DNA of 32,000 nucleotides from Candidatus Saccharimonadota bacterium (GCF_008189285.1 NZ_CP043315.1:60001-92000); one strand, 5' to 3'; shown: positions 4,757 to 29,076, counted from the first letter of the stretch. Made by a program: numbers and translations. The notes: generated from the sequence alone by a model not told the origin.

Positions 4757-6256
4757 ATGTATTTAATAGTTATGTTAGTATTTACAACTTTTTGGCACAG
4801 AATAAAACGCAGTTCCAAGATATTGTTTCCAATTAAAAGATCAGAATTTAGTTTATTTTTTTCAATATCATCTTTGATGTTATTAATTTTATTTAATACT
4901 TCCATATTAAAAACTTTAAAAGATACGTTAATAATTGCTGATAAAAATTCTGGCGCTGAAGTTGTTAATTTTCTGAAAATTTTTGTAGTTGTTCCTTTAT
5001 CTTTTATTTTTGTGTTCTTGTATAGCAAAGCGTGTAATTCAATAGATAATAGATTCATTTTTTATATAGTAATTGGATTTTTCACTGTTTTTCTTTTAAC
5101 ATTTGCATTGTTCTTATATCCTAACAGAGAATTTTTACACCCTTCATTAGAGAAAATAAATTATTTAAAATCTATGTATCCAAGATTAAAATGGATCATG
5201 CCTATTTATGGTTTATGGACTTATTCTTTATTTTATTCGTTTGCAGATTTATGGTGTAGCATGTGTTTAAGTCTTTTATTTTGGCAGTTTGCAAATCAAA
5301 TTATTTCCAAAGAGGATAGCAAAAGATTTTATGGGTCATTTGCAATAATAGGATATTTAGGATTAATAATTGCTGGATATGTTGTAAAATCTATATTTAA
5401 AATGACAAATGCAGTTAAGCTAAAAAATGTTACTAGCATAGTGAGTGAGAATGCCTTTGATACTAGATTAATAAAAATAATTTTAATAACTTGCGCTTGC
5501 AACTGTTTGATCATATCAATATATTATTTTATAACTCACCACTTATCGAAGAAAGCAATTTCTTTTGGAGTCAAAAAATCTAAAACATCCTTGCTAAATA
5601 GTTTTAAAATAATTTTTAAACAAAAACAGTTGATGTATATCATGTTCTTAGTATTTTGCTATAACTTTAGTATTAATGTAATTGAAGTTACATGGAAATC
5701 GCAATTGAAAAAATTTGCAGGAAACAAGTCTAATTACATTTTTTATGTTGGAACAATTAATCAAGTGGTAGGATATGCAACTATTTTTCTAGGGTTTATT
5801 TCCAACATAATGTTTCAGCGCTGTAGTTGGTTTACATGTGCTATGCTTACTCCTATTTTAGCTTGCTTTACTTCATTGCTATTTTTATCAAGCATTGCAA
5901 TAAAATATGTTGGATGGAAAACAATACTAGGATTTTCCTCTTTGGGTGTATGTGTTTTTGTTGGAATTGTTCATAATGTATTGAGCAAAAGTGGAAAATA
6001 TGTCTTCTTTGATCAAACTAAAGAAATGTCTTATATGCATTTGGATCAAGATTCAAAAACTAAAGGAAAAGCTGCAGTAGATGTTGCTGGAAGCAGGTTA
6101 TCCAAATCTTTAAGTGGTCAAATTCAAGCTATATTGCTTATTATTATCCCTAATTCTTCGCAGATAAAAATATTTCCTTATTTAGGGGCGCTGCTTATGT
6201 TAATATTTGCATTATGGTTCTGGTCTTTGAAAAAATTAGACAAAATGCATAAATAA
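4757..6256 (+). CDS. tlc: ATP/ADP translocase (nucleotide transporter, TLC/NTT family), paralog 1
   Basis: Multi-pass hydrophobic protein with TLC-family motifs GAEVVNFLK, YGLWTYSLFY, LLFWQFANQI, EVTWKSQ and KGKAAVDVAGSRLSKS. Confidence 0.9.
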   Translation: MYLIVMLVFTTFWHRIKRSSKILFPIKRSEFSLFFSISSLMLLILFNTSILKTLKDTLIIADKNSGAEVVNFLKIFVVVPLSFIFVFLYSKACNSIDNRFIFYIVIGFFTVFLLTFALFLYPNREFLHPSLEKINYLKSMYPRLKWIMPIYGLWTYSLFYSFADLWCSMCLSLLFWQFANQIISKEDSKRFYGSFAIIGYLGLIIAGYVVKSIFKMTNAVKLKNVTSIVSENAFDTRLIKIILITCACNCLIISIYYFITHHLSKKAISFGVKKSKTSLLNSFKIIFKQKQLMYIMFLVFCYNFSINVIEVTWKSQLKKFAGNKSNYIFYVGTINQVVGYATIFLGFISNIMFQRCSWFTCAMLTPILACFTSLLFLSSIAIKYVGWKTILGFSSLGVCVFVGIVHNVLSKSGKYVFFDQTKEMSYMHLDQDSKTKGKAAVDVAGSRLSKSLSGQIQAILLIIIPNSSQIKIFPYLGALLMLIFALWFWSLKKLDKMHK

Positions 6257-7875: not shown

Positions 7876-8484
7876 TAATACTTTTTGCCAATTATTTTAT
7901 TTCTATATTTCTTAGTTTGCATATTGCATTAGAGATTTTCTTCTTTGCAGCAAGAAATGCTAATTGATTCATTTTGATGCTTTAAATATACCTTTTGGGG
8001 ATTTATTTGTTTAATCTGCAAGAAATCTAAAATTTTAAGAATTCTTCTAATTCATAGAAAATCGAGTTCATAAAAAAGCTCAAATATTATGATTTTGAAG
8101 CGATGAAAATATCAATTTTATTTTCAGGGTTTGGTTTTATCATTCAGGTTAATACAAATCATTTTTGCAAGATTTGATTTCATAATAAATCTAATTGCAA
8201 TTTTATTTTATAAATTTTAATTTGCATTGTGATTATGATTTGATTCCAAAACTTAATTAATTTTTAATTTATAAACCTAATTGTATGCAATGAATAATTT
8301 AAATTCTAAAATCTATATTTAATTAAACTTTAAAAAGGAGTTATTGCCCAATTAATATAAATTGTATTAATTTTCAATTATATGCATTTCTTAATTTCAT
8401 AGTTTTTATCTTATCAAATTTCAATTTATTTAAGACATTATTACAAAAAGAAAGTTTAACAGGAAGGCTTAGGTTTGTATTAAA

Positions 8485-8634
8485 ATTTATCTTATTTGTT
8501 AAATTCTCTGAGATTTTATTTAGAAAATAATTTGCATTATTTGATTTTCATATTTTACTATTTATCTTATTTGTTAAATTCTCTGAGATTTTATTTAGAA
8601 AATAATTTGCATTATTTGATTTTCATATTTTACT
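8485..8634. repeat. perfect 75-bp tandem duplication (8485-8559 = 8560-8634) spanning the stop codon and last ~12 codons of the ChpT-like gene
   Basis: A base-by-base comparison of the two copies found no mismatch over 75 bp. The flanking bases differ (8484 vs 8559, 8560 vs 8635). Confidence 0.9.
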
Positions 8635-9101
8635 GTTTTATCTTTAGATAATTGTCCAATTAAGTAAAAATAACAAGAATATGAAGAGAGATTTTTCAAA
8701 AAAAGACCAGATAACTCATCTTCATTTATTATAATATCTAATTCTACCATTGTTTCAGTTACGATTACTTTGCCTTTTTTTTGCTTTTGAAGGAAAACAA
8801 GACAAATAGTAAGTAATATTTGGGCTAAATTATCTAAATTTCTTGGAGTATTTTGAAAATCTAATTCAATATAATTAATTTTTTGAATAATCTTTTCAGC
8901 ATGATTTACAGTTAGATTGGAGCTAAATATGCTTCTAATAATATCTAAAACTTGCATTGCATGATTAATAGACTCTTTAATAATATCTTGTGATTCGCTA
9001 TCTATCTTTTGGTCTAATAGCATAGCAACTCCACCCAGCGGATTGATTAAATCATGAGATATTCTAGATATCAGAGTATTCATTAATATGTTTTTATTCA
9101 T
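8595..9101 (-). CDS. histidine phosphotransferase, ChpT-like (HisKA-like helix, no ATPase motifs recognised)
   Basis: N-terminal LISRISHDLINPLGGVAMLLDQ..SQDIIKESINHAMQVLDIIRSIF parallels Caulobacter ChpT LAARLCHDFISPASAIVSGLDLLED (recalled from memory). It is 168 aa and starts 21 nt downstream of the S1-like gene on the same strand. Confidence 0.55.
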   Translation of the reverse strand: MNKNILMNTLISRISHDLINPLGGVAMLLDQKIDSESQDIIKESINHAMQVLDIIRSIFSSNLTVNHAEKIIQKINYIELDFQNTPRNLDNLAQILLTICLVFLQKQKKGKVIVTETMVELDIIINEDELSGLFLKNLSSYSCYFYLIGQLSKDKTVKYENQIMQIIF

Positions 9102-9931: not shown

Positions 9932-11473
9932 ATGAATCAAAACGCAAGTTTTATAAATAGTTTGCAAAATTGGTCGATAAAAATAGTTAAAATATTTTTC
10001 CCAATTCAAGCTAAAGAAATTAAAAAATACCTTCCTACTGCAATGATGATGTTTATCATCCTTTTTAACTACAATATTGTTAGAATTTTAAAGGATAGTT
10101 TTATTATTGGAGATGCTGGAGCAGAAGTTGTTAACTTTTTGAAGCCATTTGTTGTTCTTCCAGCTTCATTGTTGTTTGTTATTTTTTACAGTAAAATGAG
10201 TAACTCATTTAGCGAAAAAAATGTATTTTATGTTTCTGTATTACCATTCATTGCATTTAATATAATATTTACACATATATTATATCCCAATGTGAGTTGG
10301 TTGCATCCTTCTGCTGAAACTATTGCAGGATTGAAAGCATCTTATCCAAAGTTAAGATCTATATTTCCAGTATATGGACTATGGACATACTCTTTGTATT
10401 ACACGTTCTCAGAATTGTGGGGAACTGTTGCAATGAACCTATTGTTTTGGCAATTTGTTAACAGAATTGTAAGCACAGATGAAGCTAAAAGATTTTACCC
10501 ATCTTTTGGATTAGTTGGAAATATTGGATTCACATTAGGTTCTGTTCTTCTTTTGAAGACAGTTACAGTGGCTACAAAAGATACAGGTGCATTTGCAAAG
10601 CAATTTACTAATGTTATGAATATTGTAATCTTACTTAGTTTTGCATTAGTTGTCTTATACTGGGCAATTAATAAATTTGTTCTTTCGGATCCTTCTATGT
10701 TGCCATGTGAAGAAAAAGTGAAAAAGAAAAAGAAAGCTAAGCCTTCTCTTTCAGAAAGTTTCAAGATTGTTTTTTCATCTAAGTATTTAGGATTGATCAT
10801 GCTTTTGATTTTCTCTTACAATGCTATGATTAACTTGGTTGAAGTTACATGGAAAAGTCAGGTTAAAGCTTATACATCTGTTGCGGACAAAGAGATTTCC
10901 AAGGCGAACTATACAGCATTTGTTGCTAGAACAAACATATACACAGGATTAGTTTCCATTGCATTGTTTGTAGCTGCAAACTATTTGCTTTCTAGATTCA
11001 AATGGATTATTTCAGCATCTATTACACCTATAATTATGGTGTCAACATCTGTGTTGTTCTTCTTGTTTACTGTGTTTCCTAGCATTGCAACTCCAATGAC
11101 TGCGTTCTTCTCATCAACTCCATTATTTATGGCTGTTGTATTTGGAGCTATACAAAATGTTGCAAGTAAGAGTACAAAGTATTCATTGTTTGACCCTACT
11201 AAGGAGATGACATACATTCCTCTTGATAAGGAATTAAAGAGCAAAGGTAAGGCTGCAGTAGATATTGCTGGAAGCAGAATTTCCAAATCTTTTGGTTCTG
11301 CATTACAAGGTGTTCTTTTGACTGTGTTTGGATTTTCCACTCAGTTGCAAATTGCACCTTATCTTATGATTTTTGTTATATCAATTGGTATTCTATGGTT
11401 CATAGCTGTTAAGTTGTTGGCTAAAGAGTACGCAAGTGCTTTGCAAGAAAAATGCGAAGAAGATAAGAAATAA
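9932..11473 (+). CDS. tlc: ATP/ADP translocase (TLC/NTT family), paralog 2
   Basis: AAGGAG lies 7 nt upstream of ATG 9932. Motifs FFPIQAKEIKKYLP, GAEVVNFLKPF, YGLWTYSLYY, LLFWQFVNRI, EVTWKSQ and KGKAAVDIAGSRISKS. It aligns end to end with 4757..6256 but is clearly diverged. Confidence 0.9.
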   Translation: MNQNASFINSLQNWSIKIVKIFFPIQAKEIKKYLPTAMMMFIILFNYNIVRILKDSFIIGDAGAEVVNFLKPFVVLPASLLFVIFYSKMSNSFSEKNVFYVSVLPFIAFNIIFTHILYPNVSWLHPSAETIAGLKASYPKLRSIFPVYGLWTYSLYYTFSELWGTVAMNLLFWQFVNRIVSTDEAKRFYPSFGLVGNIGFTLGSVLLLKTVTVATKDTGAFAKQFTNVMNIVILLSFALVVLYWAINKFVLSDPSMLPCEEKVKKKKKAKPSLSESFKIVFSSKYLGLIMLLIFSYNAMINLVEVTWKSQVKAYTSVADKEISKANYTAFVARTNIYTGLVSIALFVAANYLLSRFKWIISASITPIIMVSTSVLFFLFTVFPSIATPMTAFFSSTPLFMAVVFGAIQNVASKSTKYSLFDPTKEMTYIPLDKELKSKGKAAVDIAGSRISKSFGSALQGVLLTVFGFSTQLQIAPYLMIFVISIGILWFIAVKLLAKEYASALQEKCEEDKK

Positions 11474-12074
11474 TTTTCTGTCTTAAGAATTTTATTTCAA
11501 GTTACTTTTAGAAGAACTTCATTCTTTTAAAAGCGCCATTTAGCTTTATTGATTTTTATTTCAATTTTATTTGGTTTTATTTTATATAATGAATAAATTA
11601 ATAAGATCATACAAAGCTAATTTCAACAAATTATTAATATCAATCAATCTATTATTTCTTGAATAGAGAAACTATTGATAATTCATAAAGTTATTTCACT
11701 GAATAGTTAGCATGAATTAATTTGTTTTGTTATTTGCGAAGGAAATATTTATTTATTTTTTATATAAATTTATAATTTCATAACTAAGTATAAATCTAAT
11801 TCATTTGAAATGGATTTTATATCAAGCATTTATTATATTTACTGTTAAATAATTATTGAGATCAATATAAATCAAGCTATACCAATAAGTTGAAATTAGA
11901 AATTTAGTATTATTGAAATATTAGAATCACTTAATTATATGATTGATTGCATTTTTATATTATTGAAGCGCATGACTAATTTATGGATCTCAAATATTAA
12001 AATAACTAATTAATTTTATTAATTATCAAGTAAGGTAGATTTTTTTGGAAACTTTAATTGTTTAATTAAATTTA

Positions 12075-13082
12075 TTATTTTTTCTGAACTCTATTTATTG
12101 AATCTATATGGTCTGAGAATTTTTCTGACACTGTTATATTTTCTTCTCTATGATGAAAAAATAGCTCTTTGCTTGATATAGGGTTAATTGAAGCAATTAA
12201 TGCATGTTTTCCTGGGTTGCATATTGATCCAATAGGCAATCCTTTAAATTTATAAGTATTATATGGAGAAATATGCTTAATATCATCATGAATTACCCTT
12301 GAAATATGAGTTTCTCCTTTTGTAATTCCATATACAGCAGTTGAATCTGCATCAAGTTTCATCTTTTGGTCCAATCTATTGCGAAATATTGTTGCTATTC
12401 TATGCATTTCATTGTTAGATTTAGATTCTTTTTGAACAATAGATGAAAAAATAATCCAGTCATTTATATTATTCCAATATTTTTTTTCATTTTGGCTCCA
12501 AATTTCAGTAGTCATTTTCACGAAATCATTTTGCATTTTTTGAATTATTTGATTTCTATTGATATTTCTTGCATACAAATAAGTTCCTGGAGAAATGGTT
12601 CCATCATTTGGAATTTCGCCAATTTCCCCTGCCATATATTGATTTTCATATAATGTTTGGCAAATCTTAAAAGAAGACCATCCTTCTGGTATTGTGATCT
12701 TTCTCATATATATTTTTTTTGACCAAATATGATATATAAATTGAAAAATATTTTTTGAATCATATTCTCCGCTTTCTAATCTAACTATTTTATTTGATGA
12801 AATAGCCATCATTGCAAGAGAGGCTAGCAATGATGATTTTGATGACGGTCTTTTGATTGATTGATTAAATATGCAAAATCTCTCTTTTAGTGATGCATTA
12901 GGATGTATGTATATAATTTTATTTATTGGATAAAGTAAAATTGAACAAAATAACACAACAGATAAAAATATATTGCGTAAAGCAAATTGATAAGTGTTAA
13001 ATTTAAAAAATACTGATAGCAATATTATTATAAATAAGAAGTCTGGATAGAAAATTTTTTGTAAAAATATAATATTTTGCAT
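12075..13082 (-). CDS. mltG: endolytic murein transglycosylase MltG (YceG-like)
   Basis: N-terminal TM helix, then IPEGWS, SIVQKES, LDADSTAVYG and ISPYNTYKFKGLPIGSICNPG. Confidence 0.85.
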   Translation of the reverse strand: MQNIIFLQKIFYPDFLFIIILLSVFFKFNTYQFALRNIFLSVVLFCSILLYPINKIIYIHPNASLKERFCIFNQSIKRPSSKSSLLASLAMMAISSNKIVRLESGEYDSKNIFQFIYHIWSKKIYMRKITIPEGWSSFKICQTLYENQYMAGEIGEIPNDGTISPGTYLYARNINRNQIIQKMQNDFVKMTTEIWSQNEKKYWNNINDWIIFSSIVQKESKSNNEMHRIATIFRNRLDQKMKLDADSTAVYGITKGETHISRVIHDDIKHISPYNTYKFKGLPIGSICNPGKHALIASINPISSKELFFHHREENITVSEKFSDHIDSINRVQKK

Positions 13083-13106
13083 TATGTTAATTCTATATTA
13101 TTTTAG

Positions 13107-13757
13107 CTATATTCTCATCAATGCAGCTACAGACAAAACTCCAGGACCTTTTTTGTTAAAAGTAATTCTTCTTTCATTCGCATCAGATCCTTGTTTGAAT
13201 AAATTAATTTGAGCGGGGTGTAAATATCTAAGCTCAAGAACTGTTATTCCAAGTCTAATTTGTGCTCCAGCTCCAACCATAGGTGTCCATTGCCACTCTT
13301 TATGCTTGTCATTAGTTGTTTCATTTTTATATTCCATATATTGACCATGGGGTCCTGCAAAAAGCAAGAATCTCATTAATGCAAAATTTACACCAAGCAC
13401 TCCAGTAGTCCCCAAAGTCCAAGTATTTGCTTTAATTGTATATTTTTCTTTTTCTTTATTTGTATTTGCTTCTAGAGAGTTTTTGCTTCTAAAAGACTTT
13501 CCAGCATCTATACAAAATCCCAAAGAAAACATGCTAACAGAGAAAAAGCTTTCTAGGGAAGCGCCTAATGTTGTTCTACTTGCAAATTTTCCACTATTTT
13601 TTTCTGATGATATTTTCTTTTCAATTTTCTTTATAGAAGAACTGATTTTTCCTTTAAGAGATAGAGTGCTCATGTCTATTCCGATTCTGGATCCCATATA
13701 AAATGACATTGCATTTGTTTGCCCAGCAATCAATAATAAGTGTAATATTTTGCGCAT
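13107..13757 (-). CDS. putative small outer-membrane beta-barrel protein (signal peptide)
   Basis: The track ORF starts at TTG 13808. ATG 13757 gives MRKILHLLLIAGQTNA, which looks like a signal peptide. The rest has alternating hydrophobic stretches and Gly-rich turns (GVLGVNFAL, GAGAQIRLGITVLELRYL). It lies 24 bp upstream of mltG on the same strand. The family assignment is weak. Confidence 0.5.
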   Translation of the reverse strand: MRKILHLLLIAGQTNAMSFYMGSRIGIDMSTLSLKGKISSSIKKIEKKISSEKNSGKFASRTTLGASLESFFSVSMFSLGFCIDAGKSFRSKNSLEANTNKEKEKYTIKANTWTLGTTGVLGVNFALMRFLLFAGPHGQYMEYKNETTNDKHKEWQWTPMVGAGAQIRLGITVLELRYLHPAQINLFKQGSDANERRITFNKKGPGVLSVAALMRI

Positions 13758-13826
13758 ATATAATTTTAGATTATTTTTATCTAAGATTGCAATGTATTTT
13801 TTTAGCAAGTAGAATAATATTAGTTT

Positions 13827-14645
13827 ATGAGAAAATTATTAAAGAAATTATATAGAAAAATAGATGGAAATAGATTCGTTAATTTTGATGTTTTTTGCAA
13901 TAATATTCAAAGTAAGTTTTCTATAGTATTTGCGCATAATATATTGAACAATCATCAAGATATGCAGTTTTTGATAGATAAATTTTCTGACACACATAAT
14001 GTTATTGCAATCGATTTTTCTGGACATGCAGGAAGTGATAATCTTAATGAATATAATTACGACTCTTATTTAAGCGATTGTTTATCAGTGATAAATCAAG
14101 CAAATTCTAAGTATATTATTTGGATAGGGCAAGGTATTGGAGGGATTATAGGGGCAAAATTAGCTTCGCATATTGCCAATCCTATTGTTGGGCTAGTTGC
14201 ATTTGATTGTGATCAGTTTTCTAATAATAATGTTTCATCTAATGATGTTGAGTATGAATATAATAATTTGATAGAAGCTAAAGAAGCTATTTATTCAAAA
14301 TACTCTGATATAGATAGAAATATCTTAGATAAATTTTCTCTGAATAAATATAAAGTTATGAATGAAATGTTTGTAAATAATTATCATATTGGAATAATTG
14401 CTCAGCTTGATAACTTTTTTAATTGTGATTTAGTAAAAATATTCAATGATGTTAGAAGTAGAGCTTTGCTAATAGGTAAGAAAGACCTAATTGATAAAGT
14501 TAATGATATGGATGTTTGCAAAGAAGAGCATGAAATTAAATTGTTGCACAAAGAAGAGCATATTAATTTAATTCATGGATGGGTTACCGATATCATGAAT
14601 GATCCTCATATGTTTTTGAATCAATTTAAGAAATACATGTCGTAA
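13827..14645 (+). CDS. alpha/beta-hydrolase-fold protein, Gly at the nucleophile position
   Basis: IVFAHN, AIDFSGHAGSD, elbow YIIWIGQGIGGIIGAKLA and VGLVAFD occur in the canonical alpha/beta-hydrolase order. Confidence 0.55.
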   Translation: MRKLLKKLYRKIDGNRFVNFDVFCNNIQSKFSIVFAHNILNNHQDMQFLIDKFSDTHNVIAIDFSGHAGSDNLNEYNYDSYLSDCLSVINQANSKYIIWIGQGIGGIIGAKLASHIANPIVGLVAFDCDQFSNNNVSSNDVEYEYNNLIEAKEAIYSKYSDIDRNILDKFSLNKYKVMNEMFVNNYHIGIIAQLDNFFNCDLVKIFNDVRSRALLIGKKDLIDKVNDMDVCKEEHEIKLLHKEEHINLIHGWVTDIMNDPHMFLNQFKKYMS

Positions 14646-16255
14646 TGTCTATTAAGGATGCTTTGTGGGTTGCGCCTAATGAAATTGAAATTGATAAATT
14701 AAAAAATCTTAAAGAATCTTATGAATTATCTGATTTAGAGGCTATTTTTGCAATTAACAGATCTGTTGATTTAAATGATTTTTTTAATTCTAAGATATCA
14801 GATTATATAAATAATAAAGATTTAGTTGACTTGCAAATTGTAGTGAATAGAATAAAAAAAGCAATTCAAAATAAGGAGAAAATAGCAATTTTAGGAGATT
14901 ATGATGTAGATGGAATTACATCAACTTCCCTGTTTATCAAATTATTCAAATCTTGTAATATTGACTGTATTTATAAAATTCCAAATAGAGAAGATGGATA
15001 TGGGCATTCTATGGAGAGTGTAAAAAATTTGGATGTAGACTTACTTTTGATGCTTGATTGCGGGAGTAGTCAAGATTTCAAAGAGATATCCAATAAAGAT
15101 ATATGTATTATAGATCACCATCAAACTAGCAATGATCCGAATGTGTTGGGATTTATCAATCCTTATAGATTTGATATTGATCCATTGCCTCAAGAGAAAT
15201 TTAAAGGAATTTGCACTGCAGGATTGGTTTTTATTGTAATTTTTCATTTAGTTGAAGAAATGAAATTGAAATTTGATTTTAAAGCGTTGTTAGATTTAGT
15301 GGCTATGGGAACAATTGGAGATTGCATGGAGCTTACTGGATTGAATAGAAGTTATGTGCAATATGGCTTGAAATTAATTAATTTAAAAAAGCGAGATGGA
15401 ATTAGATTTTTATGCGAAAATTTAAAATTAGATAGAATTTCTTCATCTAGCGTAGCTTTTTATATTTGCCCATGCATTAATGCTGCAGGAAGATTGGGCC
15501 AATCTGACATTGCATTGAGATTTTTATGTAATGATCATGAGTCTTATGAATTATCTCGTACATTGATTGGATTAAATAGCAGAAGAAAAGAAATAGAGCA
15601 GGTATGTTTAGATGAGGCTATGAGTACAATAAATGTTTCTAATAAGAAATGCATTATACTTGAGAATTCAGAATGGCATCCAGGAATTGTTGGAATTTTA
15701 GCCGGAAGAATAAAAGAAAAATTTGATTTGCCAACTTTTGTTTTTTATAAAAAAGGAGATATGTGGAAAGGGTCTGCTCGTTCTATAAATGGAATGAATA
15801 TTGGAACTCTTATACAAGATTCTGTCTGCAAAGGTTTTGCTAAAGAGGGCGGTGGACATGCTATGGCTGGAGGAGTTTCTGTTTCTGAAGATTGTTTTGA
15901 AAAATGGAAAGAATTTATTCAGGAAAATGCAAAATTTACAAAGCAGAAAAAGAAAATTACTATAGATGCAATTATGACTATGAAAGCTGTTTACAATGTT
16001 AGCTTGGATAAAGTTGCGCCTTTTGGAATGGGAAATAGCGCTCCATTAATTTTGGTTAAGAGCGTTCTTCTTGAAAAAACTTCCAAATACAATAATCATG
16101 TTAGATTAAGCTTAAATGAAAATGGATTTAGAAGAAGTATTTTTGCATTTAAGTGTAGTGAGCATGAATTTAATGTTGGCATGTTAGTTGATATTATTGT
16201 AAGAGTAGACAATATTGGAAATATAGACATAGTTGATATCTCTAATGATGCATAA
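14645..16255 (+). CDS. recJ: single-stranded-DNA-specific exonuclease RecJ
   Basis: DHH-family motifs ILGDYDVDGITS, MLDCGS and IIDHHQ, plus DHHA1 EGGGHAMAGG. ATG 14645 overlaps the upstream stop by 1 nt. Confidence 0.9.
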   Translation: MSIKDALWVAPNEIEIDKLKNLKESYELSDLEAIFAINRSVDLNDFFNSKISDYINNKDLVDLQIVVNRIKKAIQNKEKIAILGDYDVDGITSTSLFIKLFKSCNIDCIYKIPNREDGYGHSMESVKNLDVDLLLMLDCGSSQDFKEISNKDICIIDHHQTSNDPNVLGFINPYRFDIDPLPQEKFKGICTAGLVFIVIFHLVEEMKLKFDFKALLDLVAMGTIGDCMELTGLNRSYVQYGLKLINLKKRDGIRFLCENLKLDRISSSSVAFYICPCINAAGRLGQSDIALRFLCNDHESYELSRTLIGLNSRRKEIEQVCLDEAMSTINVSNKKCIILENSEWHPGIVGILAGRIKEKFDLPTFVFYKKGDMWKGSARSINGMNIGTLIQDSVCKGFAKEGGGHAMAGGVSVSEDCFEKWKEFIQENAKFTKQKKKITIDAIMTMKAVYNVSLDKVAPFGMGNSAPLILVKSVLLEKTSKYNNHVRLSLNENGFRRSIFAFKCSEHEFNVGMLVDIIVRVDNIGNIDIVDISNDA

Positions 16256-17881: not shown

Positions 17882-19305
17882 TATTTAGATGCATTAAATT
17901 TCCTTTTTTTTATACTTTGTTTAATCTATTTTCCATATCAATAATTGTTCTTATGAGCTTTGTTATTAATAATTGGTATCTTGGATTTTATTCTGTTTTA
18001 TCTTCTAATAAGGAAAAATTGCCGTATCTTATTATTTTATTTATAATATATAATATTATTTCTCATGCAAGTGTATCTTTGAAAGAATTTACACAATATT
18101 CAATAAGTATTAGGTGGAGAGCAAATATTATTGCTAAAATTGCAAGTAGAATTAAGCCTCATTTGATAGATATTTCTAATCCAGATCAAAGATTATGCGA
18201 GGATAGCAATGAATTTGTTTCATATTTTACAAAGCTTATATCTGACATTATTCTCAATGCAGTTTCTTTAATTGTATTTATGATTTCATTGACTAAAATT
18301 ACTTCATTTGGAATAGCGTATAAATTAATTCTTGGAATGACATTGTATTCTTTGCTATGCAATCAAATCATTTCATTATATGTGAAAAAATACATCTTGA
18401 AATTAGGGGGTAAAAATGAAGGAAATGAAGCTGATTTAAGAATTAAAGTTTATGAGTTGCATCAATCTAAATCTGGATTTTCTATTGGATTAAAAAGATT
18501 AGTTGTGAAGGCTTTAAGAAAAATGTCTTTCCATCAAAAAAAATATTTTAATCATAAAACACTTATAGCATTCTTGCAGAAATTATTTGATGAAAATATA
18601 GGAATGATTTTCCCCTACATATTAATTTATTTATTTAGTTCAAAGTCTTGGAATATTGGGTTAGTGATGCAAATTGTGAATTGTTTAATGGTAATTAAAT
18701 TTCGCATGATGTTTTTTAGTGAAAATATACAAGATATATATATCGCGAAAATTGGCTACTATCGTTTAAAAAGATATATCAATCATTTAATTGATCATAA
18801 AGATCAATTTCAACATGGAAGGTCTGAGAATCTTAATATAGCTTTTTGCAAAATTGAAGTGTCAAACATGATTTTATTGAATAATATAAAATTAGAAGTC
18901 AAGAAAAATGATTCTTTGTGCTTGTATGGAGAATCAGGCATAGGCAAAACAACTTTATTGAGATACATTAATAACTCTATGAAAAATATAGAAGGGTTAG
19001 TAAGCTATCCTGGAAAAATGATTTGTCTTTGTTTGGGTAATCTGAAAAATTATTTAATATCTAGAGATAGATATGAAGATCATTTTTCTCAAGGAGAATT
19101 GCAAAAAGAATGCATTTCTTGCTTGATTGAAGAAAAGCCAGATTGGATTGTTTGGGATGAATTTTGCTTGGGATTATCTCAAGAAAGCAGAAAGAGAGAG
19201 TTTTTTAGATTGAAAAATAGTTTGAAGAATATTGGATTGGTAATTTTGACGCAAGATAAATTAGATTTTTGTGATAAGTCAATTCATTTAGAGAGGTTTG
19301 CATGA
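17878..19305 (+). CDS. fused permease-ATPase ABC protein, ABCD/SbmA-BacA-like membrane domain with a compressed, divergent NBD
   Basis: NPDQRLCEDSNEF (compare NPDQRIxED of the ABC_membrane_2 family), Walker A GESGIGKTT, signature-like FSQGE and Walker B WIVWDE. The ATGA overlap with the gltX stop is at 17878-17881. Confidence 0.6.
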   Translation: MIFRCIKFPFFYTLFNLFSISIIVLMSFVINNWYLGFYSVLSSNKEKLPYLIILFIIYNIISHASVSLKEFTQYSISIRWRANIIAKIASRIKPHLIDISNPDQRLCEDSNEFVSYFTKLISDIILNAVSLIVFMISLTKITSFGIAYKLILGMTLYSLLCNQIISLYVKKYILKLGGKNEGNEADLRIKVYELHQSKSGFSIGLKRLVVKALRKMSFHQKKYFNHKTLIAFLQKLFDENIGMIFPYILIYLFSSKSWNIGLVMQIVNCLMVIKFRMMFFSENIQDIYIAKIGYYRLKRYINHLIDHKDQFQHGRSENLNIAFCKIEVSNMILLNNIKLEVKKNDSLCLYGESGIGKTTLLRYINNSMKNIEGLVSYPGKMICLCLGNLKNYLISRDRYEDHFSQGELQKECISCLIEEKPDWIVWDEFCLGLSQESRKREFFRLKNSLKNIGLVILTQDKLDFCDKSIHLERFA

Positions 19306-20132
19306 TTATTTATAGATTTTTGCCTTTTTTATACATTTCATCTTATGTTGTTATATTGTTCTTTGTGAAGCAATTGCAATTAGATTCTAGCTTAAAAGCA
19401 TTAAGTAGGTTTATGGTTTCATTTATTGTTTTGTCTCCATTATTTATTATTAATCGAGATAAATTAAAAACAAAAAATCACAAGATATATTTTATCAGAG
19501 CTGTAATTGCATGTTGCGCTGTACTTTTGACATATAGAGTTTATAGCGTGTTGCCATTTACTAGCGCTACTTCAATTTCTTTGAGTGAGCCTTTGTTTAG
19601 CGCTTTATTATCTTTTTTAATATTGCGTGAGCAGATTTCATCAAGAAAATGGATTATGCTTCTTATTGGGTATATAGGAGTGTTAGTTTCAATGTGGCCA
19701 ATAGATTTTGCAAATAAATATTTAGTTATGCAGGGGTTATTGATTTTGGCCAATATTGTGGTTTCTTTTAATAGCGTGATTATGAAAAAATTGAGCACAA
19801 ATGAAGACACAGTTACAGTTTTGTTTTATTCATATATTTATATAATTCCTTTGCTTTGGATGGTAAATGCTTTTATGGGAAATAATTTGTGTTGCAGTGA
19901 AGTTTTTACTTATCAAAATATGAAAATATTAATTCCTATAGGTGTTTTAGGGGGATTAAATAATATATTGATGATTTTTTCTTTAAAGAAATTGCCGGTA
20001 TCAACATTTACATCTGCTCAATATTTCAGGATTTTCCTTGCCACTGCTTTTAGTATATTTATTGGAGAGTGCATTTCAATCAAAGAGATTGTTGGAAGTA
20101 TAATTATTGTTGTAAGTTCAGCTTTTATGTAA
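19302..20132 (+). CDS. EamA/DMT-superfamily transporter
   Basis: About ten hydrophobic segments with a two-EamA-repeat architecture. The ATGA overlap with the preceding gene is at 19302-19305. Confidence 0.7.
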   Translation: MIIYRFLPFLYISSYVVILFFVKQLQLDSSLKALSRFMVSFIVLSPLFIINRDKLKTKNHKIYFIRAVIACCAVLLTYRVYSVLPFTSATSISLSEPLFSALLSFLILREQISSRKWIMLLIGYIGVLVSMWPIDFANKYLVMQGLLILANIVVSFNSVIMKKLSTNEDTVTVLFYSYIYIIPLLWMVNAFMGNNLCCSEVFTYQNMKILIPIGVLGGLNNILMIFSLKKLPVSTFTSAQYFRIFLATAFSIFIGECISIKEIVGSIIIVVSSAFM

Positions 20133-24426: not shown

Positions 24427-25290
24427 CTTAAAATCCAAAGCATTCTAAAGTGCACTTCTTAATGAAAAAAGTTTAGTTTATTGAAATTATAATATTTGCT
24501 GTAAAGAAGATTAGTTATAATTAAGCTGTATTTTCCTATAGAATTTAATTGCATTTTGAAGTAATGTATATTATTTGCAAGCTCATTATAAAATTTAAAT
24601 TTCATGATTTTTGAAATATAATTTTTGAAATCTCAAAAATGCATGGTCAATAAAATCTAAATAATTCACGGAAAATTTATTTTATCAATAAATAATTTCA
24701 TGAAATAAAAAAATAAGATAAATAATATTTGAAATAAAAAATAAGCGAATAATATAGAAATCATTTCATGAAAAAATGAAAACAATCTTATGTTTAATTA
24801 TATCAAGCAAGTAGCATGCAAATATATTCTATTTTTCTTAAATTGATAATGGATATCAGATAATTCTCATGTTGCATCTAAGATTCAATTAATTTTTATG
24901 AGCTTAGATTGAAAATGATTATGCGCAAAAAGATTGGAATAATATAGTAGAGCGCACAAATAATAGAATGAGATTTAGATGAATTGAAATCTTTTGAATA
25001 TAGCAATATATTCAACTATAATATTTTAACAATATAACATATATTAAATTTTGAGAATTTACTGAGATTTTTTTTAAGTTCATGTTTATGATATTAGTAA
25101 GTTTATATTTTAATGCTTCTTCTTTAATTCTACTATGAAAAATATGTGTTATATATAATCTGTAGATGAGGCAATAGAAGTTGAATTTACTTTAGCTTTC
25201 TGACATTGCGTATGAAGCTAGATCTTAAGCATTAAGAGTGAAAAATTAAGAAATAACTAGAAAAATAATTTTAATTTATATCGATAGCAG

Positions 25291-25387
25291 AATCAATAAA
25301 ATCAATAAAATCAATAAAATCAATAAAATCAATAAAATCAATAAAATCAATAAAATCAATAAAATCAATAAAATCAATAAAATCAAT
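25291..25387. repeat. 9-bp microsatellite (AATCAATAA), about 10.8 perfect copies
   Basis: Direct reading: ten perfect units at 25291-25380, plus a partial AATCAAT. Confidence 0.95.
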
Positions 25388-25705
25388 TGATAATCTAGAA
25401 AATTAGAATGCAATATAAATTATAATTGAACATATACAAACTAACATTATTTTTTTGTTAGATTGGCATTGCGCTGAACGTGTTTGTAAATTAAGAGTTT
25501 TTGCAAGATAATTTGCATATTATTGTTGATTTAAGTATATAAATTTTAAATAATAAATCTATTGATAAAGAATAGAATAATTGCTATTAAAAAATATATA
25601 ATTTTCTTAAATAGCAGAAGAAGTGTAAAATTTCTGAGAGAGAGGTGTGATTTTCTTAGAATAGCCTTAAAATAGATTTAATTTAAAATACAAAGCGATA
25701 TTTAT

Positions 25706-25920
25706 AAAATAAAATCATTTTTAGTGAATTTTGTAATTTTCGTAGGATTTTTTATAAAAGTGCAATCTAGTAGGATTGGCATATAAGTTGTTCCCAATAA
25801 AATAAAATCATTTTTAGTGAATTTTGTAATTTTCATAGGATCTTTTGTAAAAATATAATTTAGTAGAGTTGGGAGCATTAGTTGCTCTCAATGAAATAAA
25901 ATCATTCTTGGTAAAATACA
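25706..25920. repeat. about 93-bp tandem repeat, 2 copies plus a partial third
   Basis: Units start at 25706, 25799 and about 25894. The first 36 nt (AAAATAAAATCATTTTTAGTGAATTTTGTAATTTTC) are identical in copies 1 and 2. The rest is roughly four-fifths identical by eye. Confidence 0.8.
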
Positions 25921-26176
25921 ATATAATTATTCCTGATGAAGTATAAATTTTTTAAATATCAAATCATTTCTTAAAAAACGCATATCCTGCTCGAAGAAAT
26001 ATAAATTTATTAAGCTTTTTTATAACAATTGATAATATCGACCTCAAGAAAGTCATTTTAGAATATGAAAAAAGTTTATCTCAAAATGCAAAGCAATTAT
26101 TTGCAAAACAATATCTAATGAATTCTTATTATAATTTAGAATTACATTATTTTTTAGTGTAGAGTTAATTTAAAAA

Positions 26177-26473: not shown

Positions 26474-26672
26474 ACTAGAATAGTATATTAATTATCAAAA
26501 AAAGCAAATAGATTGAATTAAAAAAAATTTAAAGTTTAATTGATAGCCAATGAAAATCACAAATAAACAGATTGATAGCAATTTCTAGTTATGCGCTTTA
26601 ATGAAAACTGCATTGATGGAGACGCGCACTATAAGCTGACATAGGGTAGGATTATATCTAGATATATGAGCA

Positions 26673-26963
26673 TTATCCCAGAGATTTATAGGCTTTGGAA
26701 TTTCTTGTAGATACTGGAGGAATAGATAGAGGTATGGCTGGCTTTATAATTGACATTTTAGCCATATTTGGAATTATGCTTGAAGTCATTGGAATCATGC
26801 TTGAAGTCATTGGAATCATGCTTGTAGATGGTGATTGATTGTCTTCTCCCAAATTAATTTTATGCTTGAAATTTGCATTGAGTTTGATTTGCATGGAAGT
26901 TGCAGAAAAGAAAATAGATTGAGCTAAAAAGATTGAACTAAAAGTTTTTAAAGATGCAATCAA
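26673..26963 (-). CDS. doubtful small ORF (TTG start) carrying a 21-bp repeat; coding status unresolved
   Basis: Only ORF-track support. No SD and no family recognised. A 34-aa ORF on the opposite strand (26734..26838) reads through the same repeat. Confidence 0.2.
   Translation of the reverse strand: MIASLKTFSSIFLAQSIFFSATSMQIKLNANFKHKINLGEDNQSPSTSMIPMTSSMIPMTSSIIPNMAKMSIIKPAIPLSIPPVSTRNSKAYKSLG
26770..26824. repeat. 21-bp tandem repeat ATGCTTGAAGTCATTGGAATC, about 2.5 copies
   Basis: 26776-26796 is identical to 26797-26817, followed by a partial ATGCTTG. Confidence 0.85.
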
Positions 26964-27245
26964 AAACCAATGACTGTTATTTATGAATGAAATTTATTAT
27001 GCACATGCGCAAAATTATCGGCAACATTATGTAAATTATAGGCAATATTATTCAAACTGTTCCTATTCATGAAATTGGCTTGAAATTGCTAAAAGCAAAT
27101 AGAATGAATGAAATTTTTAAATTTAGGTTGTTGATTTATGAAATTTTCAAATAAGAAAACAGGCTGCTAAATTTTTTAATTAACTTGATTGAAAAATGAA
27201 TTTAATGATTAAGATGTATTTATCATTAAATTGCATGCAAATTAC

Positions 27246-27275
27246 TTAAAAAACAAATAGGCGGATTATACGCCC
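27246..27275 (-). terminator. possible weak intrinsic terminator overlapping the stop codon of the repeat protein
   Basis: The minus strand reads GGCG-TATAATC-CGCC followed by TATTTGTTTTTT. The stem is only 4-5 bp. Confidence 0.3.
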
Positions 27276-29050
27276 TCTTGAAACCCTCCATCAGTTAATA
27301 TATTTCCTATGTACTGAATGCGCTTGTTATCTTCCAGTTTTTCATGAAAAAGCCTCACGCTAATTCTTCCATCAATATATATACATATCTCTGCTCTATA
27401 TGCATTGTTGCACATCAATCTCCCTGCTTGTTTATCAATTAGTTTATTTTTCATAGGCTGTTTATTTTTATATAAATGATATGAATCATCCCCTCTTAGA
27501 AGTGCGTATTCTTTTGTAAATGGGAGCTTTGTTCCTTTTTCAATTAACATTGTATTCTTATCATTTTTTATTTCAAAATCAAATGGCAAAGCATGGCTGA
27601 ATCTATTGTATAATTCATCGACTTTCTTAGCTTTTTCTTTCATTTCATCAAATTGCTTTTTATTGCGTTTTTCTAATTTAGCATCTTTCTTTTTTAGCTC
27701 TTCAATCTTCTGATCTTGCTCTTGTTTAGTTGATTTTGAAAGTTTGCTAATTGCATCAAATTGCTCTTGATTGCGTTTTTCTAATTCAGCATCTTTCTTT
27801 TTTAGCTCTTCAATCTTCTGATCTTGCTCTTGTTTAGTTGATTTTGAAAGTTTGCTCATTGCATCAAATTGCTCTTTATTACGCTTTTCTAATGCAGCAT
27901 CTTTCTTTTTTAGCTCTTCAATCTTCTGATCTTGCTCTTGTTTAGTTGATTTTGAAAGTTTGCTCATTGCATCAAATTGCTCTTTATTACGCTTTTCTAA
28001 TGCAGCATTTTTCCTTTTCAACTCTTCAATTCTCTGATCTTGCTCTTGATTGCGTTTTTCTGATTCAGAATCTTTCTTAATCAATGATAAAATAAGATTG
28101 TTAGTTACAGTTTGATATGAAAGTTGATAATCCTTATTCATTTGTATTTCTAGTTGATTCCATGATATGTCTTGCTCATTTTGCAATAAAATTCTGCGAA
28201 TATTCTCATCTTGCTCAGAGAAATCTATGTAATGTTGTATGAATTCGCTTAATAATGCATTAGAATATTTTTGCGCTTCATCAATCATAGTTGAAGATTG
28301 CGCAATTCTTATATTTGCCTCTTCTGCTAAAAATGAACTTTTTATGGAATTGAATTCGTCGTCCTGTTCTTTGGCTGTTCTATTTCGATCTAGAGTGGAA
28401 TATTCTGCTGTATATGATAAATATTTATTTAGTAGAATGACAAATTGATGAATTTGATTTCTTTCGATATAAAGTCTGTGACATTCTTCTCCAACTATTT
28501 TTCTTAATGTTCGTTCGTTAATTGAGCAAATTTCCATTAGATAAGAAACAATTTGATTGTTTTCATTTAAGAATTCATCAGATAATTCAATATAGAATTT
28601 GTCATATTCTGCATTTATCATTGCTCTTTCTGCCGCTTCTAATTGCTCAGTTCTGCTTTCTTGTGATTTGTCAGCACTTTCGCATTTATATGTAGAGGTC
28701 ACTTCATCTGTTTCAGATTCTGCGTCATTAAATTTCATTTCATCCAATAATGCATTTAATTGTTTCTGGGTTGCTATATCTGTGGTTCTAGATGCGATAG
28801 AAAGCAATGCTGCAATTTGCTTTGATGGAATATCTTTTGGATCAATGACAGATCCAGTTTCGCTATCAGTATGCAAGTCATGGTAAATCCCTGCTTGTTC
28901 GCTAATATCACTATTTTGGCATGGCGCAACGGAACATGTGCTTGACTGAGATAGAGGATTTAGACTTGGGCTTAATCCCATATGCCCAGCATTTTCACCG
29001 CCTGATACAATGCATTGAGCTATGCATAAGCAAAGTATTTTTGTTTTCAC
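27266..29050 (-). CDS. orphan exported protein: signal peptide, helical acidic region, 4 x 36-aa coiled-coil repeats and an unknown C-terminal domain
   Basis: GTG 29050 is preceded by AAAAGGGGTGA with 4-nt spacing. The N-terminus MKTKILCLCIAQCIVSGG looks like a signal peptide. It is a long uninterrupted ORF in an AT-rich background, and I recognise no family. Confidence 0.75.
   Translation of the reverse strand: MKTKILCLCIAQCIVSGGENAGHMGLSPSLNPLSQSSTCSVAPCQNSDISEQAGIYHDLHTDSETGSVIDPKDIPSKQIAALLSIASRTTDIATQKQLNALLDEMKFNDAESETDEVTSTYKCESADKSQESRTEQLEAAERAMINAEYDKFYIELSDEFLNENNQIVSYLMEICSINERTLRKIVGEECHRLYIERNQIHQFVILLNKYLSYTAEYSTLDRNRTAKEQDDEFNSIKSSFLAEEANIRIAQSSTMIDEAQKYSNALLSEFIQHYIDFSEQDENIRRILLQNEQDISWNQLEIQMNKDYQLSYQTVTNNLILSLIKKDSESEKRNQEQDQRIEELKRKNAALEKRNKEQFDAMSKLSKSTKQEQDQKIEELKKKDAALEKRNKEQFDAMSKLSKSTKQEQDQKIEELKKKDAELEKRNQEQFDAISKLSKSTKQEQDQKIEELKKKDAKLEKRNKKQFDEMKEKAKKVDELYNRFSHALPFDFEIKNDKNTMLIEKGTKLPFTKEYALLRGDDSYHLYKNKQPMKNKLIDKQAGRLMCNNAYRAEICIYIDGRISVRLFHEKLEDNKRIQYIGNILTDGGFQEGV
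27640..28075. repeat. 108-bp in-frame tandem repeat, about 4 copies, inside the orphan CDS
   Basis: Units start at 27681, 27789, 27897 and 28005 (the last diverged), with a partial unit at about 27640. Units 27789-27896 and 27897-28004 read identically. Confidence 0.95.
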
Positions 29051-29076
29051 AAATCACCCCTTTTCTTTTTTACTGT

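Follow-up and report, generated by a model that had tools for sequence, protein, structure and literature searches.

Proteins built from in-frame repeats and/or long helices recur in intracellular bacteria, where they are lineage-restricted, fast-evolving and encoded among housekeeping genes. Examples of the kind include the Ehrlichia TRPs and the coiled-coil effectors of chlamydiae and Legionella, which are secreted by means of type I, type III or type IV secretion signals and not through the Sec pathway. Charged single helices and long coiled-coil spacers are exemplified by the single alpha-helix (SAH) of myosin, an ER/K domain, by stathmin-like helices, and by Lpp, a periplasmic ruler whose length sets the width of the periplasm in Escherichia coli. 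The best-documented precedent for a Sec-signal protein of the order Holosporales reaching its host comes from Holospora obtusa, in which the 63-kDa protein PRP1 and an 89-kDa invasion-tip protein, both of the infectious form, are periplasmic and carry a putative signal peptide; these proteins of 'novel sequence' accumulate in the periplasm before they are secreted to host structures or exposed towards them (PMC9866348; PMC11909080). A DNA-binding domain (Pfam D5_N) is present in PRP1, and actin-binding motifs are present in the 89-kDa protein (PMC9866348). Here we describe FZC35_00375 (QEK37845.1; WP_148980692.1), annotated as a hypothetical protein and encoded in a 32,000-nucleotide stretch of the genome of Candidatus Cytomitobacter indipagum (NZ_CP043315.1:60001-92000; hereafter the window), a Holosporaceae endosymbiont with a 628-kb genome whose host is the diplonemid protist Diplonema aggregatum.

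With the two Holospora proteins FZC35_00375 has in common the order Holosporales, lineage specificity and a predicted signal peptide, whereas it contains neither D5_N nor any other Pfam domain, a contrast drawn from the descriptions of the Holospora proteins and not from their sequences. Holospora also has an infectious form, whereas none has been described for Cytomitobacter. In kind, FZC35_00375 resembles the lineage-specific repeat and coiled-coil proteins that are common in obligate intracellular bacteria; its likeness to the Ehrlichia, chlamydial and Legionella proteins is of kind only, and no sequence similarity to them was found. Like ER/K helices and coiled-coil spacers, it is rich in E, K and R, poor in hydrophobic residues and endowed with an excess of opposite-charge pairs, and its length appears to change through repeat copy number. 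Its closest true relatives are two proteins of C. primus, QEK38343.1 and QEK38346.1, with which it shares a motif, a signal-like N-terminus, a Shine-Dalgarno (SD)-like leader, the order of its regions and its locus.

The genome had been published, with this gene annotated as hypothetical and with some 100 predicted exported proteins and many hypothetical ones noted by its authors, who reported 106 predicted signal-peptide proteins and a reduced type II secretion system and type IV pilus machinery (T2SS/T4P; George et al., bioRxiv 10.1101/719211). From the comparisons below, FZC35_00375 may be a Sec-exported, Cytomitobacter-restricted and fast-evolving protein with a head-stalk-head layout, likely acting in the envelope or at the host interface, a composite reading for and against which we find the evidence evenly poised.

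Relatives of FZC35_00375 and their shared motif

The preliminary description of the window had called FZC35_00375 an orphan and the only large gene there without a recognisable family. The lack of a curated family was borne out, with no Pfam family at E<=1 and no NCBIfam family at E<=10, and no confident match to a housekeeping periplasmic protein was found. Its sequence matches in the PDB were limited to stathmin and a designed coiled coil (E 0.004-0.01), which are compositional and not homologous. The statement about large genes holds for ORFs (open reading frames) of >=300 aa, but three smaller window ORFs of 168, 233 and 272 aa, at 8595-9101 (minus strand), 13107-13808 (minus strand) and 13827-14645 (plus strand), are likewise without a Pfam family at E<=1e-5. 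In the strict sense the word orphan did not survive, since two homologues were found in C. primus.

Relatives were reached by synteny: through Pth homologues, five related small genomes were identified along with one short contig, 20 kb around pth were taken per relative, and all six-frame ORFs (851) were searched with FZC35_00375. Two matches were significant, and each lies at the pth-rpmB-secA locus of C. primus. These are QEK38343.1 (710 aa, hereafter Cpri710; phmmer E 3.9e-11; blastp 36% identity over 126 aa, E 3e-12) and QEK38346.1 (741 aa, hereafter Cpri741; blastp 32% over 63 aa, E 2e-7), the latter named 'coiled-coil domain-containing protein' by NCBI. The two are clear paralogues (28% over 394 aa, E 5e-33), both intact and each recorded on two contigs of the collection, and a profile built from them alone matches residues 273-394 of FZC35_00375 (E 6e-10). 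When the non-repeat motif segment was shuffled, the real scores lay at z 15.5 and 13.0 and were reached by 0 of 5000 shuffles; the similarity is therefore not compositional. By these comparisons FZC35_00375 is a member of a small Cytomitobacter family with two C. primus paralogues, and so no strict orphan. The Cpri741 gene occupies positions 12019-14244 of C. primus OX638200 (L005), and its product is found verbatim in the EukProt dataset of the host Diplonema japonicum (EP01064_..._P003583), which implies either transcription or symbiont contamination among the host proteins.

Rescaled from 851 ORFs to 5.8 billion sequences, the phmmer E-value for Cpri710 becomes about 3e-4, so the family is invisible to routine searches. 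A whole-protein search of 5.8 billion proteins, in which 8,000 word-sharing candidates were scored and were probably crowded by coiled-coil proteins, returned FZC35_00375 itself as a singleton. When 1.84 billion representatives were searched exhaustively by phmmer with the C-terminal 119 aa, no relative beyond self emerged, and lineage restriction was upheld on both counts. Two further C-terminal matches at E<1e-3 were discarded as repeat artefacts, one to a TPR-repeat NLR-like protein with weak matches summed over 7 repeats and one to a repetitive junk translation. A word-indexed protein search with residues 1-335 returned nothing and missed even the query's own entry, so this null is unreliable. 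Nothing was found when metagenomes were scanned twice, with the profile of the family core and with FZC35_00375 itself, or below E 0.1 in a PDB profile search with the family core; a genome-contig search with Pth yielded metagenome-assembled genomes at 36-50% identity only and no Cytomitobacter genome.

Significant conservation across the family is confined to one segment, with a core of ~50 aa that reads ENxxR..(N/K)(D/E)Q...W(N/E)xL...M(N/D)..Y(Q/R)(L/I).Y(Q/E).(V/I)TNxLI..L. Its invariant hydrophobic residues (W, +3, +7, +11, +15, +18, +22, +26) form a stripe with a spacing of ~3.7 residues and not heptads, which points to an amphipathic helix at the junction of head and stalk. Upstream of the motif, the head is collinear with the C. 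primus proteins at a similarity that is not significant (profile domain 1, score -1.8). Downstream, homology of the beta-rich regions was suggested by eye (LLVxDGxxLP; IDIYGxLT against ICIYIDGRIS) and failed both statistical tests: in the hidden Markov model (HMM) test the real sequence ranked about 220th among 5000 shuffles, and Smith-Waterman z values were 1.5 and 0.1, the only common match being a short (M/L)L(I/V)xxGxxLP. This candidate homology is unproven.

All three members nevertheless have the same order of regions, namely signal, Ser/Asp-rich linker, helical region, motif, charged helix and beta-rich region. The conserved W and the beta region lie 183 aa apart in FZC35_00375 against 99 and 60 aa in C. 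primus, a threefold range, and the two C. primus proteins have shorter stalks and no 36-aa tandem array. Because a single segment of the C. primus profile is matched by the first repeat unit of FZC35_00375 and by the last alike, the stalk was probably lengthened by duplication of an ancestral unit. In contrast, both C. primus proteins carry an extra 230-290-aa C-terminal coiled-coil tail that FZC35_00375 lacks and that gave sub-threshold SMC-like matches only. Housekeeping neighbours are 67-75% identical between C. primus and C. indipagum, while FZC35_00375 is alignable over ~20% of its length only; the family thus evolves much faster than its surroundings.

Predicted export and protein architecture

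FZC35_00375 is a real, native and intact gene. In this AT-rich DNA (about 29% GC in the window) the probability of a stop is 0.083 per codon, or one expected every 12 codons, and 594 open codons would arise by chance with a probability of ~4e-23. GC content (0.322) and GC at third codon positions (GC3, 0.237) are typical of window genes, which indicates a native gene and no recent import. An in-frame TGA lies two codons upstream of the GTG, making it the earliest possible start, and it is preceded by AAAAGGGGTGA-TTT. SD-like sequences occupy the equivalent place in the C. primus homologues (GAGGAG and GTGAGGG). The only SD candidate for the internal ATG (M24, opening MGLSPS..), an alternative raised in the preliminary description, is a poorly spaced GGTGA 14 nt upstream, and the GTG is favoured. 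In the window, rplY, rpmB, secA and gmk have no SD-like sequence, and that of pth (TAAGGAATA) is weak; this contrast between the family and its housekeeping neighbours may reflect differential translation initiation in a reduced genome.

The N-terminus has the features of a Sec signal, as had been proposed. A positively charged n-region (K2 and K4) precedes an uncharged run of 14 residues, in which the h-region (I5-V15) includes the highest 11-residue Kyte-Doolittle value of the protein (2.83 at residue 5). By inspection, either V15-S16-G17|G18 or S16-G17-G18|E19 satisfies the small-residue rule at -3/-1. Past residue 40 there is no transmembrane (TM)-like window, and in a rule-based screen of the 24 window proteins FZC35_00375 alone combined signal features with the absence of a later TM-like segment; hydrophobic N-termini elsewhere in the window are those of polytopic transporters. 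Both C. primus homologues begin with equivalent hydrophobic N-termini (MQKIFLLFITSCMFA.. and MKNIFLLYLVFAQVYAGS..), with small residues after the hydrophobic segment (MQKIFLLFITSCMFA|MP and MKNIFLLYLVFAQVYA|GS, i.e., MFA|MP and VYA|GS), and this signal-like start has been kept in both although the adjoining sequence cannot be aligned. Together with the SD-like sequences of all three genes, which are an independent line of evidence, the homologous N-termini support both the GTG start and a signal function, and a run of 14 uncharged residues, too short to span a membrane, argues against a membrane anchor. Sec-dependent export, with cleavage by signal peptidase (SPase) I near residue 17-19, is a prediction that we hold to be quite likely.

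A lipoprotein cleaved by SPase II was considered and rejected. The IAQC that had been described as lipobox-like departs from the consensus [LVI][ASTVI][GAS]C, C13 being preceded by I-A-Q with Q at -1, and C7 (preceded by K-I-L) and C9 (preceded by L-C-L) fit no better. Within the family, the Cpri710 signal has a canonical lipobox-like ITSC and the Cpri741 signal has no Cys.

Table 1. Features of FZC35_00375 and its immediate flanks; positions are counted from the first nucleotide of the window.
Feature	Position	Strand	Basis and remarks
Coding sequence, 594 aa and TAA stop (27266-27268)	27266..29050	minus	GTG start; annotated FZC35_00375
Shine-Dalgarno-like AAAAGGGGTGA	29054..29064	minus	Read from the sequence; end of G-run 6 nt from GTG
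Predicted Sec-type signal peptide, residues 1-18 (MKTKILCLCIAQCIVSGG)	28997..29050	minus	Hydropathy and rule-based check; putative SPase I site after G17 or G18
Ser/Pro/Gln/Asp-rich linker, residues 19-75, with C39 and C44	28826..28996	minus	Composition; probably disordered
Acidic, mostly helical 'head', residues 76-272	28235..28825	minus	Composition, AlphaFold2 (AF2)
Family-conserved segment, residues 273-331	28058..28234	minus	Only segment conserved across the family; head-stalk junction
Long charged helix ('stalk'), residues 297-485	27596..28162	minus	AF2, composition
Tandem array, 108 nt x 3.8 copies, in frame	27640..28048	minus	Tandem Repeats Finder (TRF), 94% matches, score 699
Basic (pI about 9), beta-rich C-terminal domain, residues 486-594	27269..27595	minus	AF2, low confidence
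Terminator-like hairpin GGGCG-TATAATC-CGCCT, then ATTTGTTTTT	27249..27275	minus	Overlaps stop codon

The layout of the mature protein (Table 1) largely agrees with that of the preliminary description, which had listed a Ser/Pro/Cys linker, an acidic helical region of ~300 aa, four tandem 36-aa units and a beta-like C-terminus. In the AF2 model the linker has no secondary structure, at very low confidence, and the equivalent Ser/Asp-rich stretches of the homologues are not alignable with it. Residues 60-344 have an isoelectric point (pI) of about 4.5 and the last 115 aa one of 9.1, and the low-confidence AF2 models place helices up to residue 485 and strands beyond. An RGD tripeptide at residues 519-521 was set aside as probably due to chance (~0.05 occurrences expected per protein, an estimate).

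The stalk is modelled as helices 297-398 and 409-485, and about residues 330-470 are the sole part of the model with moderate confidence (predicted local distance difference test, pLDDT, 60-76). If its ~190 residues formed one continuous helix, this would be about 28 nm long. The array unit is a 36-aa sequence, EQDQKIEELKKKDAxLEKRNKEQFDAMSKLSKSTKQ, with units beginning at residues 336, 372, 408 and 444; the first three differ from each other by 5-11 nt, and the fourth diverges after ~24 residues. Across residues 325-480 there are 38 D+E, 46 K+R and 25 LIVMF among 156, and opposite-charge pairs at i/i+3 and i/i+4 number 64 versus 44+/-5 in shuffles, in the manner of ER/K-type helices. The best heptad register places 18 of the 49 hydrophobic residues at a/d positions, and the helix shows no coherent register, as the 36-aa unit equals 5 heptads + 1. 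The earlier designation as a coiled coil is uncertain; the stalk may form a weak coiled coil or, alternatively, a single helix of the ER/K type.

Gene turnover between pth and secA

FZC35_00375 belongs to a minus-strand series, rplY - pth - FZC35_00375 - rpmB, with secA convergent from the other side and with spacers of 363, 792 and 1750 nt. The 792- and 363-nt spacers that flank the gene contain short low-complexity ORFs only, in agreement with the ORF-free spacers noted previously. In the downstream spacer (26474-27265) a 21-nt x 2.7 repeat at 26768-26824 yields a low-complexity 96-aa TTG ORF on the minus strand (SSMIPMTSSMIPMTSS), which is probably non-coding. The hairpin at the end of the gene is a weak terminator candidate, with a 5-bp stem and 2 such sites in the region versus 1.3 expected, and is listed because its position falls exactly on the gene end. 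The spacer between secA and rpmB (24427-26176) is gene-free over 1.75 kb and has 20.7% GC. Two repeats lie in it, one of 93 nt x 2.2 (25704-25906) and one a perfect array of 9 nt x 10.8 (AATCAATAA, 25291-25387); its counterpart in C. primus is occupied by Cpri710. A search of the window spacers for remnants of Cpri710, Cpri741, xth or a second copy of FZC35_00375 found none, and this spacer showed no trace of Cpri710 at the protein level. Elsewhere in the window, two genes for TLC-family ATP/ADP translocases (4757-6256 and 9932-11473; Pfam E 7e-123 and 1e-143) lie <5 kb apart, a pairing consistent with the energy-parasitism lifestyle described for C. indipagum.

The interval differs from one relative to the next. 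In C. primus its order is pth - 97-aa ORF - Cpri741 - xth-like - rpmB - Cpri710 - secA, and in C. indipagum it is pth - FZC35_00375 - rpmB - AT-rich, repeat-laden spacer - secA. In the related genomes L007 (ENA ERZ25333217) and L008, the neighbours pth, rpmB and secA have no insert between them; beside the intact secA of L007, whose genome is about 619 kb, three short SecA_DEAD ORFs (236, 88 and 238 aa; 14179-16025) look like a decayed tandem secA duplicate. In the Cytomitobacter-like L006 (ENA ERZ25333236), large ankyrin-repeat proteins stand beside pth and secA. Three ankyrin-repeat proteins are encoded there (1-1477, 8269-9009 and 17997-19745), the two large ones with hmmscan Pfam E-values of about 1e-100 despite a blank in their precomputed Pfam annotation, and one of 582 aa has a signal-peptide-like start (MKKISMIYGSIFLLNMFAG). 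L011 (Logan SRR12358675), the closest relative by Pth identity (73%), has an unrelated 159-aa ORF after pth (1189-1668), which also begins like a signal peptide (MKKVGILFLLAMQGVCG) and matches no Pfam family. Within 10 kb of pth no family member was found in L006, L007, L008, L011 or Nesciobacter. The slot after pth thus seems, from these gene orders, to collect different exported proteins in different lineages.

Strand orientation at the locus also differs between C. primus and C. indipagum. An inversion of a block containing rpmB and a 710-like gene, combined with loss or gain of the block containing Cpri741, would reconcile the two arrangements; under such an inversion FZC35_00375 would be orthologous to Cpri710, and Cpri710 is also the protein that it matches best. 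A search for inverted repeats marking the inversion found only AT-rich chance matches. The preliminary description had proposed that absent or frameshifted orthologues would signal a decaying gene. Orthologues are indeed absent near pth in three of five relatives with large contigs and highly divergent in C. primus, but the C. indipagum copy itself is intact, a pattern that indicates rapid gene turnover at the locus and not decay of FZC35_00375.

Possible roles and competing explanations

In the role that we propose for FZC35_00375, a cleavable signal peptide would take the protein across the inner membrane, and the mature protein would consist of five parts, namely a disordered linker, an acidic helical head, an amphipathic helix, a charged stalk and a basic, beta-rich end domain. 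The conserved amphipathic helix would probably nucleate self-association or dock the head onto the stalk. The stalk, probably lengthened in the recent past through in-frame duplication of the 36-aa unit, would act as a spacer of adjustable length, and the fast-changing end domains would make the contacts. Such a protein, with end domains and a stalk length in rapid evolutionary change, could serve as a spacer or an adhesin-like molecule, and its destination could be the periplasm, the surface or the host. The secreted or surface effector of the preliminary description is upheld in part by these comparisons; passage beyond the periplasm and an effector function would be candidate properties.

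Several points weigh against this proposal. The h-region is unusual for a signal peptide in having a glutamine (Q12) and three Cys, and the prediction of export draws on sequence rules plus the conserved N-terminus. AF2 without an alignment is unusable as structural support (pLDDT 42.9 for the full length, 37.8 for the C-terminal domain), and homology of the head and of the C-terminal domain to the C. primus proteins is not demonstrable. Nothing ties FZC35_00375 to a host target. Differences between the repeat units are mostly non-synonymous, though too few to interpret, and fast divergence with absence from relatives fits relaxed constraint as well as host-driven selection. The family could, finally, be wider than it appears, the exhaustive search having covered the C-terminal domain.

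The main competing explanation, which we think unlikely though far from negligible, is that FZC35_00375 is a structural protein of the periplasm or envelope, exported by Sec and then retained, with its ~28-nm helix as a strut between envelope layers. A signal peptide guarantees delivery only to the periplasm, secretion machinery is reduced in the C. indipagum genome (bioRxiv 10.1101/719211), a helix of ~190 residues is comparable to periplasm dimensions, and the Cys pairs could form disulfides there. The bacteria of D. aggregatum have moreover been described with 'a prominent periplasm' (Tashyreva et al., PMC5845003, Fig. 8H legend), although this remark is qualitative and was made without comparison between species. 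However, an essential envelope part should be conserved, and FZC35_00375 has no counterpart near pth in L006, L007, L008, L010 and L011, can be aligned with C. primus over ~20% of its length only, and shows no similarity to any known envelope family. The N-terminus could instead be an uncleaved signal anchor in the inner membrane, or translation could begin at M24 and give a cytoplasmic coiled-coil protein; either outcome appears improbable. The short h-region with its Q and three Cys would suit them, and the weak, sub-threshold coiled-coil matches of Cpri741 to SMC/Rad50 models are a reminder that such cytoplasmic proteins exist. Yet those matches are far under the cut-offs and fall in the C-terminal extension that FZC35_00375 lacks, the uncharged run is too short for an anchor, the start site with its SD favours the GTG over M24, and both homologues have kept the hydrophobic N-terminus followed by small residues.

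Two further explanations concern the status of the gene itself. An intact but dispensable ORF on its way to loss, its fast evolution being drift in a small endosymbiont population, would be consistent with its absence at the locus in most relatives, with the resemblance of the AT-rich, repeat-laden flanking DNA (the 1.75-kb spacer and its two arrays) to decayed sequence, and with the predominance of non-synonymous differences among the repeat units. We nevertheless find it distinctly improbable, as the gene has remained open over its whole length, with a good SD and a repeat array in frame, the motif and signal peptide have been kept while housekeeping proteins diverged by 25-33%, and two intact paralogues persist in C. 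primus. That the gene is left over from a phage or other mobile element, perhaps encoding a fibre-like protein in which a coiled-coil shaft bears a beta tip, is close to refuted. The succession of head, long helix and beta tip is superficially fibre-like and the locus is rearranged between species, but none of the three family members matched PHROGs at E<=0.01, tblastn against 50,697 phage records found nothing, base composition is native, no integrase, transposase or phage genes lie nearby, and a Sec signal would be unexpected on a fibre protein.

Our preference for an exported protein of the envelope or host interface owes part of its appeal to the setting of the symbiosis. The symbionts lie free in the cytosol, touching the mitochondrial outer membrane (PMC13462478; PMC5845003), and a volume electron microscopy study leaves open whether specific tethering complexes exist (PMC13462478). 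This context makes a host-interface role attractive, though it provides no evidence for FZC35_00375 itself. In a more speculative version, which we consider very improbable, the family would form a tether between Cytomitobacter and the mitochondrion, an exported or surface protein that binds the mitochondrial outer membrane through its fast-evolving end domain and sets the spacing by a stalk of repeat-adjustable length (60 to 183 residues); or else, with no greater likelihood for the two taken jointly, it would form a ruler spanning the periplasm, which would explain the 'prominent periplasm' of the D. aggregatum symbiont. Specific support for either comes from architecture and lineage restriction only.

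Taken alone, FZC35_00375 carries little weight, as it represents an ordinary class of gene in a published genome. What the comparison adds is that the protein is not a singleton but one of a small family marked by a single, sharply conserved amphipathic motif, that its start codon and signal sequence have comparative support, and that its stalk has changed threefold in length, apparently through recent in-frame duplication. In addition, the rearrangement-prone pth-rpmB-secA interval holds different exported or ankyrin (eukaryote-like) proteins, or nothing, depending on the relative. FZC35_00375 would therefore be a concrete, testable candidate for a protein of the symbiont's envelope or of its interface with the host, in a symbiosis that brings symbiont and mitochondrion into contact.

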